Source of the DNA: a virus
Direction: 5' to 3' (one strand)
Virus genome (UHGV): UHGV-0041830
DNA: 15,804 bases
Shown here: positions 3,298 to 15,804 of the stretch, piece after piece
How positions within the stretch are numbered: position 1 is the first letter of the stretch
Layout of the letters: each line of letters begins with the position of its first letter
Position numbers and translations under genes: made by a program
Notes under the pieces: generated by a model
What the model was told of the DNA's origin: nothing
Seen by the model: only the letters and a program-made list of their open reading frames with translations
Databases searched by the model: none

Positions 3298-3307
3298 NNN
3301 NNNNNNN
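3298..3307. other. Assembly gap (N10); flanks 2988-3297 and 3308-3617 are ~310-bp near-identical copies
   Basis: Run of 10 n. Post-gap sequence agatgacggtggaaaaagcccgcccgatcctgg... repeats 2988 onward with roughly 8% substitutions. Confidence 0.95.
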
Positions 3308-5109: not shown

Positions 5110-5117
5110 TCCGTGAG

Positions 5118-5146
5118 CGGGGGCGAAATGCCCCCGTGTCTTTTTT
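5118..5146 (+). terminator. Intrinsic-terminator-like hairpin downstream of the major capsid gene
   Basis: Stem CGGGGGC (5118-5124), loop GAAAT, stem GCCCCCG (5130-5136), then TGTC followed by TTTTTT (5141-5146), 9 nt after the E stop codon. Confidence 0.5.
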
Positions 5147-5905: not shown

Positions 5906-6439
5906 ATGGCGATAAAAGGGCTTGATCAGGCGATTGACAATCTGAGCCGGGTTCGTAAAAACGCCATTCCGGCGGCTTCAGCAATGGCCATTAACCGCGT
6001 GGCCACAACGGCGATTAATCAGTCTTCATCACAGGTTGCCCGGGAGACAAAGGTTCGCCGGAAACTGGTTAAGGAACGGTCCAGACTGAAACGGGCGACG
6101 GTCAGAAATCCGAATGCCAGAATTATCGTTAACCGCGGTGATCTCCCTGTGATTAAGCTGGGGATCAGGATGCTGGGGCGTCGCCCGAACAGCATACTTA
6201 AAGCCGGTCAGCATCGGTATCAGCGGGCATTTATTCAGAGATTAAAAAATGGTCGCTGGCATGTCATGCAGCGTGTGGCCGGGAAAAACCGTTACCCCAT
6301 TGATGTGGTGAAAATCCCGATGGCGGCCCCACTGAAACAGGCATTTGATGAGAATGTTGACCGTATCCGGCGTGAACGCCTGCCTAAAGAACTGGCATAC
6401 GCGCTGAAACAACAACTGAGGATTGCAATAAAACGATGA
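5906..6439 (+). CDS. Z: Tail completion protein Z
   Basis: 177 aa basic protein in the lambda Z position between FII and U. AGGGTG RBS. Stop overlaps the U start (ATGA). Confidence 0.88.
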   Translation: MAIKGLDQAIDNLSRVRKNAIPAASAMAINRVATTAINQSSSQVARETKVRRKLVKERSRLKRATVRNPNARIIVNRGDLPVIKLGIRMLGRRPNSILKAGQHRYQRAFIQRLKNGRWHVMQRVAGKNRYPIDVVKIPMAAPLKQAFDENVDRIRRERLPKELAYALKQQLRIAIKR

Positions 6440-6838: not shown

Positions 6839-7591
6839 ATGGCAACACCAAATCCCCTTGAGCCGGTAAAAGGTGCCGGTACCACTCTGTGGGTTTACAA
6901 CGGCAAGGGTGATGCTTATGCAAACCCGTTGTCAGACGATGACTGGCAGCGACTGGCTAAGGTGAAGGATCTGACGCCGGGCGAGATGACGGCAGAATCC
7001 TACGATGATAACTACCTGGATGATGAAGACGCGGACTGGACCGCGACCGGGCAGGGGCAGAAATCTGCAGGTGATACCAGTTTTACGCTGGCCTGGAAAC
7101 CGGGAGAGGAAGGCCAGAAAGGGCTTATAGGCTGGTTTGAAAGCGGCGATGTCCGGGCCTATAAAATCCGTTTTCCGAATGGCACGGTGGATGTGTTTCG
7201 TGGCTGGGTCAGCAGTATCGGTAAGGCCGTGACGGCGAAAGAAGTGATCACCCGCACGGTGAAAGTCACTAACGTGGGTAAACCTTCTGTAGCGGAAGAA
7301 CGCAGCAAAATTACGCCGGTCAGTGCGATTAAGGTGACGCCGACATCCGGTACGGTGGCAAAAGGGAAAACAACCACCCTGACGGTTTCTTTTGAGCCGG
7401 AAAGTGCAACCGACAAGACGTTCAGAGCGGTTTCCGCCGATCCGTCGAAAGCCACCATTAGTGTGAAAGATATGACAATTACGGTAAACGGCGTGGCGAC
7501 AGGTAAGGTGCAGATCCCTGTGGTGAGCGGAAATGGTCAGTTCGCCGCAGTGGCTGAAGTCACCGTTACTGAAGCGGGCGCTGCAGGGTAA
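6839..7591 (+). CDS. V: Major tail tube protein V with C-terminal Ig-like domain
   Basis: 250 aa (lambda V 246 aa). GAGGA RBS. The C-terminal ~90 aa ([38 protein letters not shown]...) has the alternating-residue pattern of a bacterial Ig-like (Big_2) domain, as in lambda gpV. Confidence 0.92.
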
Positions 7592-11040: not shown

Positions 11041-11050
11041 NNNNNNNNNN
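11041..11050. other. Assembly gap (N10); flanks 10948-11040 and 11051-11143 are 93-bp near-identical copies (H 3' end and M start)
   Basis: Run of 10 n. atgacatggcccgcaagggtgcccgtgatgaaat... appears on both sides with a few substitutions. The pre-gap side already contains the H stop and an M start codon (ATG 11027). Confidence 0.95.
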
Positions 11051-12161: not shown

Positions 12162-12905
12162 ATGACAGAGACAGAATCAGCGATTCTGGCGCACGCCCGG
12201 CGATGTGCGCCAGCGGAGTCGTGCGGCTTCGTGGTAAGCACGCCGGAGGGGGAAAGATATTTCCCCTGCGTGAATATCTCCGGTGAGCCGGAGGCGTATT
12301 TCCGGATGGCTCCGGAGGACTGGCTGCAGGCAGAGATGCAGGGTGAGATTGTGGCGCTGGTCCACAGTCATCCCGGTGGTCTGCCCTGGCTGAGTGAGGC
12401 CGACCGGCGGCTGCAGGTGCAGAGTGATTTGCCGTGGTGGCTGGTCTGCCGGGGGGCGATTCATAAGTTCCGCTGTGTGCCGCATCTCACCGGGCGGCGC
12501 TTTGAGTACGGGGTGACAGACTGTTACACACTGTTCCGGGATGCTTACCATCTGGCGGGGATTGAGATGCCGGATTTTCATCGCGGGGATGACTGGTGGC
12601 GTCACGGTCAGAATCTCTATCTTGACAATATGGAGGCTACTGGTTTTTACCGTGTCGCACTGACAGAGGCGCAGCCGGGCGATGTGCTGCTGTGCTGTTT
12701 TGGTTCATCGGTGCCGAATCACGCCGCCATTTACTGCGGCGACGGTGAGCTGCTGCACCATATTCCTGAACAACTGAGTAAACGAGAGAGGTATACCGAC
12801 AAATGGCAGCGACGCACACACTCCCTCTGGCGTCACCGGGAATGGCACGCATCTGCCTTTACGGGGATTTGCAACGATTTGGCCGCCGCATCGACCTTCG
12901 TGTGA
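12162..12905 (+). CDS. K: Tail tip assembly protein K, JAB/MPN (JAMM) metalloprotease-like plus NlpC/P60 domains, full-length reading
   Basis: ATG at 12162 is 4 nt after the L stop, open to TGA at 12903-12905. JAMM motif HSHPGGLPWLSEAD (12364-12403) with upstream ESCG (12206-12217). Cys in VTDCYTLF and His residues downstream fit an NlpC/P60 core. The shorter reading from the internal ATG at 12306 is about 199 aa. Confidence 0.82.
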   Translation: MTETESAILAHARRCAPAESCGFVVSTPEGERYFPCVNISGEPEAYFRMAPEDWLQAEMQGEIVALVHSHPGGLPWLSEADRRLQVQSDLPWWLVCRGAIHKFRCVPHLTGRRFEYGVTDCYTLFRDAYHLAGIEMPDFHRGDDWWRHGQNLYLDNMEATGFYRVALTEAQPGDVLLCCFGSSVPNHAAIYCGDGELLHHIPEQLSKRERYTDKWQRRTHSLWRHREWHASAFTGICNDLAAASTFV

Positions 12906-13444
12906 AAACGGGGGCTGAAGCCATCCGGGCACTGGCCACACAGCTCCCGGCGTTTCGTCAGAAACTGAGCGATGGCTGGTATCAGGTACGGATTGCCGGG
13001 CGGGATGCAGGAGAAACCGAATTATCATCCCGTCTTAATGAGCCGCTGGCAAATGGTGCCGTGATCCACATCGTGCCGCGTCTTGCGGGAGCAAAAAGTG
13101 GCGGTGTGTTTCAGGCGGTGCTGGGTGCGGCGTTGATTGCTACGGCAATCTGGATGCCGGGGATCAGTATCGCTTTCAGTGACATTCTCTTTTCAATGGG
13201 TGCGGCGATGACGCTTGGTGGTGTGGCGCAGATGCTGGCACCGAAAGCCAGAACTCCCCGTACACAGACAACGGATAACGGCAAACAGAACACCTATTTC
13301 TCCTCACTGGATAACATGGTTGCCCAGGGCAATGTCCTGCCTGTTCTGTACGGTGAAATGCGCGTGGGGTCACGTGTGGCATCTCAGGAGATCAGCACGG
13401 CAGATGAAGGGGATGGTGGTCAGGTTGTGGTAATTGGGCGGTAA
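12803..13444 (+). CDS. I: Tail tip assembly protein I (variant allele), N-terminal ubiquitin-like domain ending in Gly-Gly
   Basis: 213 aa. N- and C-terminal thirds match lambda gpI. The central segment (DAGETELSSRLNEPLANG...AVLGAALIATAIWMPGISIAFSDILFSMGAAMTLGG) differs from the second copy at 14195-14775. Overlaps K by 103 nt. An alternative start at ATG 12842 is possible. Confidence 0.85.
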   Translation: MAATHTLPLASPGMARICLYGDLQRFGRRIDLRVKTGAEAIRALATQLPAFRQKLSDGWYQVRIAGRDAGETELSSRLNEPLANGAVIHIVPRLAGAKSGGVFQAVLGAALIATAIWMPGISIAFSDILFSMGAAMTLGGVAQMLAPKARTPRTQTTDNGKQNTYFSSLDNMVAQGNVLPVLYGEMRVGSRVASQEISTADEGDGGQVVVIGR

Positions 13445-13517
13445 TATTATTTTACTCATGTTCTAACTAATTTAATATTTATATCGAACACTGATAATTA
13501 TTCTATTGGTTAGCTAT
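13445..13517 (+). promoter_or_regulatory. AT-rich putative promoter/leader of the inserted lipoprotein gene
   Basis: Extremely AT-rich 73 bp. Candidate -35 TTTAAT (13471-13476) and -10 GATAAT (13493-13498) with 16-bp spacer. Weak, unvalidated prediction. Confidence 0.3.
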
Positions 13518-13856
13518 ATGAACAAAACGATTTTATTCTGCACGATTATTGCCTTAACAGGATGTAAATCTTTGGATTACGTAAAATCCGGAAAACCTGT
13601 AATGGAAGGTAATTCATTAAAAAATATTGATGAATTGTCAGGCTGCATATCCAGACAATGGGCTGGTAATGGAACACCTATAACATCCCTTCCTATTGAG
13701 AATGGGGTAAGCCTTTTAGTTCCACAGGCTATGGGGGGATATGATGTTGTGCTTGATATCAAAAAAGCAGGAAATGGCAGTAGTTTTACTCTTTATGAAC
13801 GTGTACCAGCATTAACGCCAAAAATTTTTGCTGATAGTGTTAATGCATGTAAATAA
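13518..13856 (+). CDS. Predicted outer-membrane lipoprotein of unknown function (moron inserted between tail genes I and J)
   Basis: 112 aa. N-terminus MNKTILFCTIIALTG|CKS is a textbook signal peptidase II signal: basic n-region, hydrophobic core, lipobox L-T-G-C, and Lys (not Asp) at +2 after the lipidated Cys. Two further Cys residues. Tandem TAA TAG stops. ~36% GC against GC-rich flanks. Start could alternatively be TTG 13506. Confidence 0.75.
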   Translation: MNKTILFCTIIALTGCKSLDYVKSGKPVMEGNSLKNIDELSGCISRQWAGNGTPITSLPIENGVSLLVPQAMGGYDVVLDIKKAGNGSSFTLYERVPALTPKIFADSVNACK

Positions 13857-13880
13857 TAGTTAATCCTGTCGTAACTCATG

Positions 13881-13908
13881 AGCCGCCTTTTGGGCGGCTT
13901 TGTTGTTT
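13881..13908 (+). terminator. GC hairpin plus T-tract between the moron and J (conserved in the second I-J junction)
   Basis: AGCCGCC (13881-13887), loop TTTTG, GGCGGCT (13893-13899), then TTGTTGTTT. Lies 14 nt upstream of the J ATG. Confidence 0.45.
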
Positions 13909-13922
13909 ATGGAGTGTGAGGA

Positions 13923-14184
13923 ATGGGTAAAGGAAGCAGTAAGGGGCATACCCCGCGCGAAGCGAGGGACAACCTGAAGTCCACGCAGCTGCTGAGTGTG
14001 ATCGATGCCATCAGCGAAGGGCCGGTTGAAGGTCCGGTGGATGGATTAAAAAGCGTGCTGCTGAACAGTACGCCGGTGCTGGACAGTGAGGGGAATACCA
14101 ATATATCCGGTGTCACGGTGGTGTTCCGGGCAGGTGAGCAGGAGCAGACACCGCCGGAGGGATTTGAATCCTCCGGCTCCGAGA
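13923..14184 (+). CDS. J: Central tail fiber / tip attachment protein J, N-terminal 87 codons (copy 1, cut by N10 gap)
   Basis: MGKGSSKGHTPREARDNLKSTQLLSVIDAISEGPVEGPVDGLKSVLLNSTPVLDSEGNTNISGVTVVFRAGEQEQTPPEGFESSGSE matches the lambda J N-terminus almost exactly. GAGGA RBS. Confidence 0.92.
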
Positions 14185-14194
14185 NNNNNNNNNN
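14185..14194. other. Assembly gap (N10) joining a segment ending in J to a segment beginning inside the K/I overlap
   Basis: Run of 10 n. Post-gap sequence accttcgtgtgaaaacgggggctgaagcc... corresponds to 12894 onward, so this is not a simple overlap: the following segment is an alternative copy of the I-J locus. Confidence 0.95.
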
Positions 14195-14775
14195 ACCTTC
14201 GTGTGAAAACGGGGGCTGAAGCCATCCGCGCACTGGCCACACAGCTCCCGGTGTTTCGTCAGAAACTGAGCGACGGCTGGTATCAGGTACGGATTGCCGG
14301 GCGGGACGTCAGCACGTCCGGGTTAACGGCGCAGTTACATGAGACTCTGCCTGATGGCGCTGTGATTCATATTGTTCCCAGAGTCGCCGGGGCCAAGTCA
14401 GGTGGCGTATTCCAGATTGTCCTGGGGGCTGCCGCCATTGCCGGATCATTCTTTACCGCCGGAGCCACCCTTGCAGCATGGGGGGCAGCCATTGGGGCCG
14501 GTGGTATGACCGGCATCCTGTTTTCTCTCGGTGCCAGTATGGTGCTCGGTGGTGTGGCGCAGATGCTGGCACCGAAAGCCAGAACTCCCCGTACACAGAC
14601 AACGGATAACGGCAAACAGAACACCTATTTCTCCTCACTGGATAACATGGTTGCCCAGGGCAATGTTCTGCCGGTTCTGTACGGTGAAATGCGCGTGGGG
14701 TCACGCGTGGTTTCTCAGGAGATCAGCACGGCAGACGAAGGGGATGGTGGTCAGGTTGTGGTGATTGGTCGCTGA
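14195..14775 (+). CDS. I: Tail tip assembly protein I (lambda-like allele), 5'-truncated by gap
   Basis: Codon boundary at 14197, stop TGA 14773-14775. Central segment DVSTSGLTAQLHETLPDGAVIHIVPRVAGAKSGGVFQIVLGAAAIAGSFFTAGATLAAWGAAIGAGGMTGILFSLGASMVLGG matches lambda gpI as I recall it. Confidence 0.88.
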
Positions 14776-14793
14776 TGCAAAATGTTTTATGTG

Positions 14794-14820
14794 AAACCGC
14801 CTCCGGGCGGTTTTATCGTT
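14794..14820 (+). terminator. GC hairpin plus T-tract upstream of J (second copy)
   Basis: AAACCGCC (14794-14801), loop TCCG, GGCGGTTT (14806-14813), perfect 8-bp stem followed by TATCGTTT. Same position relative to the J start as 13881-13908. Confidence 0.45.
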
Positions 14821-14835
14821 TATGGAGCATGAGGA

Positions 14836-15220
14836 ATGGGTAAAGGCAGCAGTAAGGGGCATACCCCGCGCGAAGCGAAGGACAACCTGAAATCATCCCA
14901 GATGCTGAGCGTGATAGACGCCATCAGCGAAGGGCCGGTTGAAGGTCCGGTGGATGGATTAAAAAGCGTGCTGCTGAACAGTACGCCGGTGCTGGACAGT
15001 GAGGGGAATACCAATATATTCGGCGTCACGGTGGTGTTCCGGGCCGGTGAGCAGGAGCAGACTCCGCCGGAGGGATTTGAATCCTCCGGCTCCGAGACGG
15101 TGCTGGGTACGGAAGTGAAATATGACACGCCGATCACCCGGACCATCACGTCGGCAAACATCGACCGTCTGCGCTTTACCTTCGGTGTGCAGGCACTGGT
15201 GGAAACCACCTCAAAGGGGG
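14836..15220 (+). CDS. J: Tail tip attachment protein J, N-terminal part (copy 2, pre-gap)
   Basis: Near-identical to 13923-14184 and to the lambda J N-terminus. Continues ...TVLGTEVKYDTPITRTITSANIDRLRFTFGVQALVETTSKG. Confidence 0.92.
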
Positions 15221-15230
15221 NNNNNNNNNN
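15221..15230. other. Assembly gap (N10); flanks 15128-15220 and 15231-15323 are 93-bp near-identical copies within J
   Basis: Run of 10 n. cgccgatcacccggaccatcacgtcggcaaacat... is present on both sides with substitutions. Confidence 0.95.
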
Positions 15231-15804
15231 CGCCGATCACCCGGACCATCACGTCGGCAAACATTGACCGTCTGCGTTTTACTTTCGGCGTGCAGGCACT
15301 GGTGGAAACCACCTCAAAGGGGGACAGGAATCCATCGGAAGTCCGCCTGCTGGTTCAGATTCAACGTAACGGTGGCTGGGTGACGGAAAAAGACATCACC
15401 ATTAAGGGCAAAACCACGTCGCAGTATCTGGCCTCGGTGGTGGTGGATAACCTGCCGCCGCGCCCGTTTAATATCCGGATGCGCAGGATGACGCCGGACA
15501 GCACCACAGACCAGTTGCAGAACAAAACGCTCTGGTCGTCATACACCGAAATCATCGATGTGAAACAGTGCTACCCGAACACGGCACTGGTCGGCGTACA
15601 GGTGGACTCGGAGCAGTTCGGCAGCCAGCAGGTGAGCCGTAATTATCATCTTCGCGGGCGCATTCTGCAGGTGCCGTCGAACTATAACCCGCAGACGCGG
15701 CAATACAGCGGTATCTGGGACGGAACGTTTAAGCCAGCATACAGCAACAACATGGCCTGGTGTCTGTGGGATATGCTGACCCATCCGCGCTACGGCATGG
15801 GGAA
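15231..15804 (+). CDS. J: Tail tip attachment protein J, continuation, 3'-partial at window edge
   Basis: Codon boundary at 15233. Translation ...PITRTITSANIDRLRFTFGVQALVETTSKGDRNPSEVRLLVQIQRNGGWVTEKDITIKGKTTSQYLASVVVDNLPPRPFNIRMRRMTPDSTTDQLQNKTLWSSYTEIIDVKQCYPNTALVGVQVDSEQFGSQQVSRNYHLRGRILQVPSNYNPQTRQYSGIWDGTFKPAYSNNMAWCLWDMLTHPRYGMG matches lambda J residues ~100-300. Confidence 0.92.

Follow-up and report, generated by a model that had tools for sequence, protein, structure and literature searches.

The spacer between the tail gene I and the tail-tip gene J of lambdoid phages carries, on the strand of the late transcript, a terminator-like hairpin that on comparative evidence is under selection for pairing and that keeps its place next to J in the HK97-, N15-, and lambda-type loci where accessory genes have been inserted. 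We favour, with moderate confidence, the reading that this is a Rho-independent terminator, which would act on RNA polymerase devoid of Q and would be read through by Q-loaded polymerase in lytic growth. The hairpin itself is already known, a terminator being annotated at this site in Ayreon, HK633, phiKO2, and HK97, and the finding is correct but ordinary.

Two Prophages Joined in One Scaffold

The window, i.e., the whole stretch of 15,804 nt analysed here (UHGV virus genome UHGV-0041830), has the layout of a lambda-like late operon. It contains five runs of exactly 10 N (1069–1078, 3298–3307, 11041–11050, 14185–14194, and 15221–15230), by which it is recognised as a scaffold built from short contigs. 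The gap at 14185–14194 separates two prophage contigs. To its left, all on the + strand, lie the tail assembly gene I of the first prophage (12803–13444, recognised by the Pfam family Lambda_tail_I), an inserted accessory gene or "moron" (13518–13856), and the 5′ end of J (13923–14184), cut by the contig end. To its right, also on the + strand, are the 3′ part of gene I of a second lambda-type prophage (14195–14775), with 78% nucleotide identity to the first I, and the 5′ end of the second J (14836–15220), which runs into the gap at 15221–15230. The J 5′ end of this contig (14195–15220) repeats the J start found at 13923–14184, with 248 of 262 positions identical, and its final 92 nt overlap the next contig (88/92 identical). 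Past 14185, the contigs are paralogous pieces of J that overlap and come from different prophages, so the order of genes in that part has no biological meaning.

One prophage in the complete Escherichia coli ATCC 11775 genome has gene I, a hypothetical gene of 112 aa, and J at full length, and in the complete genomes of both ATCC 11775 and strain O18 the two loci sit in separate prophages ca. 150 kb apart. Given the scaffolding and this separation, a comparison of the two hairpins of the window (copy 1 and copy 2 hereafter) is one between two prophages of a single host, with no tandem duplication. An earlier reading of the sequence alone had taken them for duplicates within one phage; the apparent duplication is an assembly artefact.

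Sequence and Folding of the Hairpins

The copy-1 hairpin (13881–13899, + strand), recovered from the sequence, a terminator scan, and folding, has the arms AGCCGCC (13881–13887) and GGCGGCT (13893–13899) around the loop TTTTG (13888–13892), and its stem can be extended to 13880–13900, giving nine pairs and a 3-nt loop. The T-rich tract that follows on the same strand, TTGTTGTTT (13900–13908), abuts the ribosome-binding region of J (GAGGA), whose ATG is at 13923. In copy 2 (14794–14813, + strand), identified from the sequence, its folding, and its match to phage Ayreon, the arms are AAACCGCC (14794–14801) and GGCGGTTT (14806–14813), the loop is TCCG (14802–14805), and the T-rich tract TATCGTTT (14814–14821, + strand) reads UUUUAUCGUUU when the TTT of the stem is included; the J ATG is at 14836. 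The sequence-only reading placed these two hairpins with their T-tracts correctly, save that the copy-2 tail ends at 14821 and not at 14820. The core that it described as kept, GCCGCC/GGCGG, has to be shortened to CCGCC/GGCGG, the 5 bp common to both hairpins, as copy 2 has ACCGCC in place of GCCGCC. Its statement that the loops and the stem-end bases differ in a way that maintains pairing is borne out by the pair adjacent to this core: copy 1 has G-C there and copy 2 has A-U, so that both sides have changed in a truly compensatory manner.

Folded as RNA, the 45-nt segment around copy 1 reaches −16.8 kcal/mol (centroid −15.4) with a z-score of −3.1 against dinucleotide shuffles, only 2 of 200 of which were as good, and the corresponding copy-2 segment −19.4 kcal/mol with a z-score of −4.1 (0/200 as good). 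Both therefore beat their shuffles and are present beyond what chance would give, in line with the folding calculation that had been proposed. The isolated hairpins have folding energies of −14.9 (copy 1) and −13.2 kcal/mol (copy 2). In a consensus scan of the whole window, 13880–13900 ranked second among the terminator-like sites, the first being a hairpin of the same class (GCGGGGGC/GAAAT/GCCCCCGT plus TTTTTT; 5117–5137, + strand) in the spacer downstream of the E-like (major-capsid) gene.

In structure and position, both hairpins have the properties of intrinsic terminators. Their stems of 7–9 bp with 5–6 G-C pairs, their loops of 3–5 nt, and their energies of −13 to −15 kcal/mol lie within what is expected of such elements (GC-rich stems of ca. 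5–14 bp, loops of 3–8 nt), and U-tracts follow on the + strand, (C)UUUGUUGUUU in copy 1 and UUUUAUCGUUU in copy 2. Both are intergenic, shortly 3′ of a stop codon, and oriented as the upstream gene, copy 1 beginning 24 nt past the stop of the inserted gene (13856) and copy 2 beginning 18 nt past the stop of I (14775). The U-tracts of the two copies are interrupted, so that their efficiency may be modest and is probably not maximal. The T-run is found on the late-transcript (+) strand only, and we rejected a bidirectional terminator because the minus strand has none.

Other candidate identities were discarded as well. An RNase III site was rejected, the stem having merely 8–9 bp. No curated Rfam family reached its gathering threshold when 13300–15100 was scanned in E-value mode (best scores of 17–20 bits vs. 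thresholds of 40–55), and the sub-threshold matches to GcvB (19.6 bits vs. 42), SAM-SAH, and STnc130 were taken as chance matches to a generic hairpin. The EHEC prophage sRNAs AgvB and AsxR were dismissed too, since they sit at the PR′ moron site and not between I and J.

Conservation and Covariation Before J

We collected 366 starts of J homologues from four lambdoid groups (lambda-, Stx-, HK97-, and N15/phiKO2-type loci). A terminator-like hairpin was present within 130 nt upstream of J in 344 of them, mostly ending 10–20 nt before the gene, which agrees with the earlier proposal of a conserved structure on the late-transcript strand in front of J. An alignment of 68 distinct I–J sequences of lambda, HK97, and N15 type was then used to examine pairing. 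Of its 476 cells, 99.8% are paired, and the one broken cell aside, all single-sided changes lead to G-U. Two pairs have changed on both sides, one between GC and AU (8–24) and the other between AU and GC (11–21), whereas in controls with a slid 3′ partner pairing was kept in just 32–70% of cells. Alignment of I–J spacers across lambdoid phages, the comparison suggested by the sequence-only reading, thus revealed the covariation looked for.

The loops vary freely (TGCG, TCCG, TTTTG, TTGC, TTCG, TCAG, TAAG, and others) and the T columns 3′ of the stem show no variation in the 68 sequences. Among 28 distinct lambda-type spacers of 60 nt, only 1 of the 16 stem columns is polymorphic vs. 15 of 44 elsewhere (Fisher p = 0.027). 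An identical downstream context, TTTTTTTATGGGCGCAATATG, occurs with three unrelated stems (GGCCACC/GGTGGCC, GGTCGC/GCGACC, and GGCTG/CGGCC), and the Stx-type hairpin has a C-G to U-A swap of its own. The independent events are few and the sequences related, but this is the classical pattern, and judging from these alignments the I–J hairpin is under selection for pairing.

In the 358 loci in which I and J could both be located, the spacer measures 30–80 nt in 242 and has 300–1030 nt inserted in 70. In the inserts inspected of HK97, N15, and lambda type, the hairpin stays at the J-proximal end. Exceptions to this rule are the Escherichia albertii-type inserts (848–851 nt; loci L026:620–873 and L030), in which a reverse-strand gene separates I from J and the 130 nt next to J lack a terminator-like hairpin.

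Several other features of these spacers may be recorded here. In Stx-type phages (e.g., Stx2a phage WGPS4, L138:1242–1500) the I–J spacer is 240–260 nt long, with two hairpins and no annotated ORF, and two to four tandem CAGACAT repeats are found right before the J ribosome-binding site. The sequence UUUAUGG immediately after the hairpin (13904–13910 and 14817–14823 in the window; L445:2127–2133) is conserved in lambda-type and HK97/N15-type spacers and contains an AUG, out of frame with J, that precedes the J AUG by 14 or 11 nt and whose relative frame is identical in the two types; the conserved sequence may reflect no more than the junction of the U-tract with the Shine-Dalgarno region. Lambda J DNA with ca. 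98% identity was also detected in assemblies labelled as Pseudomonas, Streptomyces, Neobacillus, Shewanella, Bradyrhizobium, and others (loci L007–L057); these matches, mostly on short low-coverage contigs, are probably lambda contamination of the assemblies.

Counterparts in Known Phages

In phage lambda (J02459) the I–J hairpin is found at 15463–15482, as AAACCGCC-TGCG-GGCGGTTT-TGTCATTT, and differs from copy 2 solely in the second loop position (TGCG vs. TCCG) and in two bases of the tail. The lambda reference record leaves it unannotated. In Ayreon, where a terminator is annotated (MF807953, 14895–14934), hairpin and tail match copy 2 at every base. The closest layout to copy 1 is that of HK97, whose RefSeq record gives the order I, "Gp22 moron product," "Gp23 reverse moron product," "putative terminator" (15107–15129), and J, that is, gene I, one or more inserted genes, a hairpin with its T-tract, and J 11–14 nt further on. 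The HK97 type resembles copy 1 in position, strand, and the TTTATGG after the T-run, but its stem is GCCACC/GGTGGC rather than CCGCC/GGCGG, its U6–U7 tract is perfect, and its inserted genes are unrelated to the lipoprotein gene of copy 1. The rho-independent terminators annotated by the record authors in the I–J spacers of HK633 and phiKO2 are equivalents of that of HK97.

Hairpins of this kind are frequent in lambdoid late operons. Among the late-operon spacers of lambda of at least 40 nt, those of D–E, E–FI, I–J, J–lom, and lom–stf have a hairpin with a T-tract, L–K being the sole exception; the hairpin-bearing spacers after D, E, J, and lom are at 6080–6134, 7161–7201, 18904–18964, and 19586–19649 (locus L384). 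Those of lambda (D–E, E–FI, J–lom, lom–stf) and of the procapsid module of phages L and P22 likewise combine a GC-rich hairpin and a T-tract in a short spacer of an antiterminated operon, although positions and sequences differ from those of the I–J hairpin, whose position is conserved unusually widely across J-bearing siphoviruses. The phage L genome paper describes intra-operon terminators as common in lambdoid late operons and their roles as unknown, and offers two proposals, partial termination or the stopping of spurious transcription that lacks antitermination (PMC8022706).

The Inserted Accessory Gene

The gene inserted in the first prophage encodes a predicted lipoprotein of 112 aa with an LTGC lipobox, according to its lipoprotein signal, and matches phrog_914; no Pfam or NCBIfam family was matched by the protein. 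Its GC content of 27–45% stands against 54–60% in the flanks, and the I–J distance is 478 nt here vs. 60 nt in lambda, both as would be expected for a moron in the Hendrix/Juhala sense. The phage records of the collection lack the insert altogether, and among complete E. coli genomes 338 of 5426 have it. The gene adjoins the receptor-binding gene, and this position suggests that its product might be a receptor-masking superinfection-exclusion protein like Cor or Llp.

Homology to the lambda-type spacer stops near the stop codon of I and starts again at the hairpin, the 3′ flank being homologous to lambda. The 7-bp direct repeat ACTCATG is present on the + strand at 13454–13460 and again at 13874–13880, where it abuts the 5′ arm of the hairpin. 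The two repeats flank a 420-bp insert, and removing the insert together with one repeat leaves a spacer of 58 nt, near the 60 nt of lambda; this arrangement suggests a target duplication or a microhomology-mediated insertion. The lambda-homologous flank, the repeat, and the J-adjacent hairpin seen in other inserts all fit the earlier proposal that the moron entered upstream of a resident hairpin. Of the 60 viral contigs with the copy-1 variant of the hairpin, 59 also have the inserted gene, to which the variant is linked; no empty site was seen among them, the remaining contig having the variant in an unrelated context.

A moron is defined as having a promoter and a terminator of its own (PMC3594210). 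From the stop of the inserted gene to J, the copy-1 hairpin is the sole terminator-like element. On the + strand of the spacer that separates I from the inserted gene (13445–13517), no sigma-70 promoter match of at least 9/12 was found; this spacer is very AT-rich and has weaker candidates.

T1-Like Virulent Phages

A terminator also follows the I homologue in 71 of 76 loci of T1-like virulent phages, and in 26 of the 76 an exact TATAAT lies within 35 nt after it. In KarlJaspers and Klebsiella phage K50_evo2, for instance, the terminator hairpin is placed directly after the I homologue and before J, as in the lambdoids, but a TATAAT −10 element comes next and J has its own promoter, for which the lambdoid spacers are too short. 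This TATAAT is located ca. 40 nt before J, and a −35-like TTGCGC falls within the loop and 3′ arm of the hairpin (L447:788–867 and L448:790–867; loci L451–L529).

These phages lack Q, so a terminator at this place, followed by a promoter, suggests a role in lytic expression as well, and makes I/J look like an old transcription-unit boundary. A wider generalisation, which we advance only tentatively and consider rather doubtful, is that the I/J terminator could be an ancient, position-fixed boundary of transcription units in J-bearing siphoviruses and at the same time a docking point where accessory genes repeatedly land upstream, borrow the terminator, and need bring only a promoter.

Possible Roles of the Hairpin

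The element that we propose would consist of a GC-rich stem of 7–9 bp, a short variable loop, and a U-rich tract on the late-transcript strand, with the J ribosome-binding site right after it. J is an essential gene. The 22–27 nt between the hairpin and the J ATG are filled by the Shine-Dalgarno region, and a scan found no promoter-like site there. With an essential J and no room for a promoter of its own, late transcription must read through the hairpin. The region expected to hold Q and its loading site lies outside the window; for lambda, their place ahead of the late operon is established, and Q-loaded RNA polymerase is termination-deficient, since Q narrows the RNA exit channel and so prevents terminator hairpins from forming (PMC9388147). 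During lytic growth, polymerase loaded with Q would pass the hairpin. In the prophage state, the copy-1 hairpin would end the accessory-gene transcript before J, and the hairpins of copy 2 and lambda would stop stray transcription from entering J and the genes beyond. The data presented here establish the structure, conservation, compensatory changes, and strand polarity of the element and its place relative to inserted genes; actual termination, read-through under Q, and a lysogenic expression of the inserted gene are what we infer. Lambda keeps the hairpin with no insert upstream, so ending the accessory-gene transcript cannot be its sole role, and a reasonable view is that it is terminator-like and works for the inserted gene as well. 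A Term-seq data set exists for EHEC Sakai (cited in PMC7547250); the EHEC Term-seq paper reports tR′ only, and the transcriptome papers on HK022 and Salmonella prophages make no mention of the I–J site.

The sequence-only reading had proposed a partial terminator or mRNA-stability element that sets J expression. As an attenuator in lytic growth, the hairpin would stop a fraction of the late transcripts before J, leaving less mRNA of J and the downstream genes than of the upstream tail genes. Its location inside the late operon, immediately before J, is what such a device would need, partial termination is one of the possibilities offered for the phage L elements (PMC8022706), and the terminator plus fresh promoter of the T1-like phages fits a separate control of J dosage. 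This seems unlikely to us all the same, given that Q-loaded polymerase blocks the formation of terminator hairpins (PMC9388147) and that lambda has similar hairpins before E, FI, lom, and stf, genes with very different dosage needs, so that a role specific to the dosage of J is not indicated. As a stability or processing element, the hairpin would act after endonucleolytic cleavage of the long late transcript, blocking 3′-to-5′ exonucleases and protecting the upstream K–I or accessory-gene mRNA. Being stable, GC-rich, at the 3′ end of a cistron, and followed by AU-rich single-stranded sequence, it would suit that purpose, and equivalents are placed after the highly expressed capsid genes D and E; yet an exonuclease barrier has no need of an invariant, strand-specific U-tract, which is a hallmark of intrinsic termination, and it is not obvious why the messages of K and I, assembly proteins of low abundance, should need stabilising. 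We regard this as improbable too.

A purely DNA-level explanation, in which the conserved segment is a linker for homologous recombination of J (host-range) modules or for the docking of accessory genes and has no RNA function, would account for the I–J junction being an insertion hot spot, for the 7-bp direct repeat around the insert beside the hairpin, and for a Citrobacter prophage (L029) whose hairpin is identical to the E. coli type although both flanks are different. It is nevertheless very hard to reconcile with the compensatory changes and the replacement of whole stems in an unchanged context, which point to selection on pairing and not on the sequence identity that recombination needs, and the strand-specific T-tract likewise points to a role at the RNA level. 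Rho-independent termination of Q-less polymerase is thus the reading that we retain.

Significance

The importance of these results beyond annotation is small, and consists in the confirmation that the unannotated I–J hairpin of lambda is under selection for pairing. The site is, however, a convenient test case for the role of the terminators found inside antiterminated late operons (PMC8022706): thousands of E. coli prophages conserve it, with and without an accessory gene upstream, and virulent relatives combine it with a promoter.
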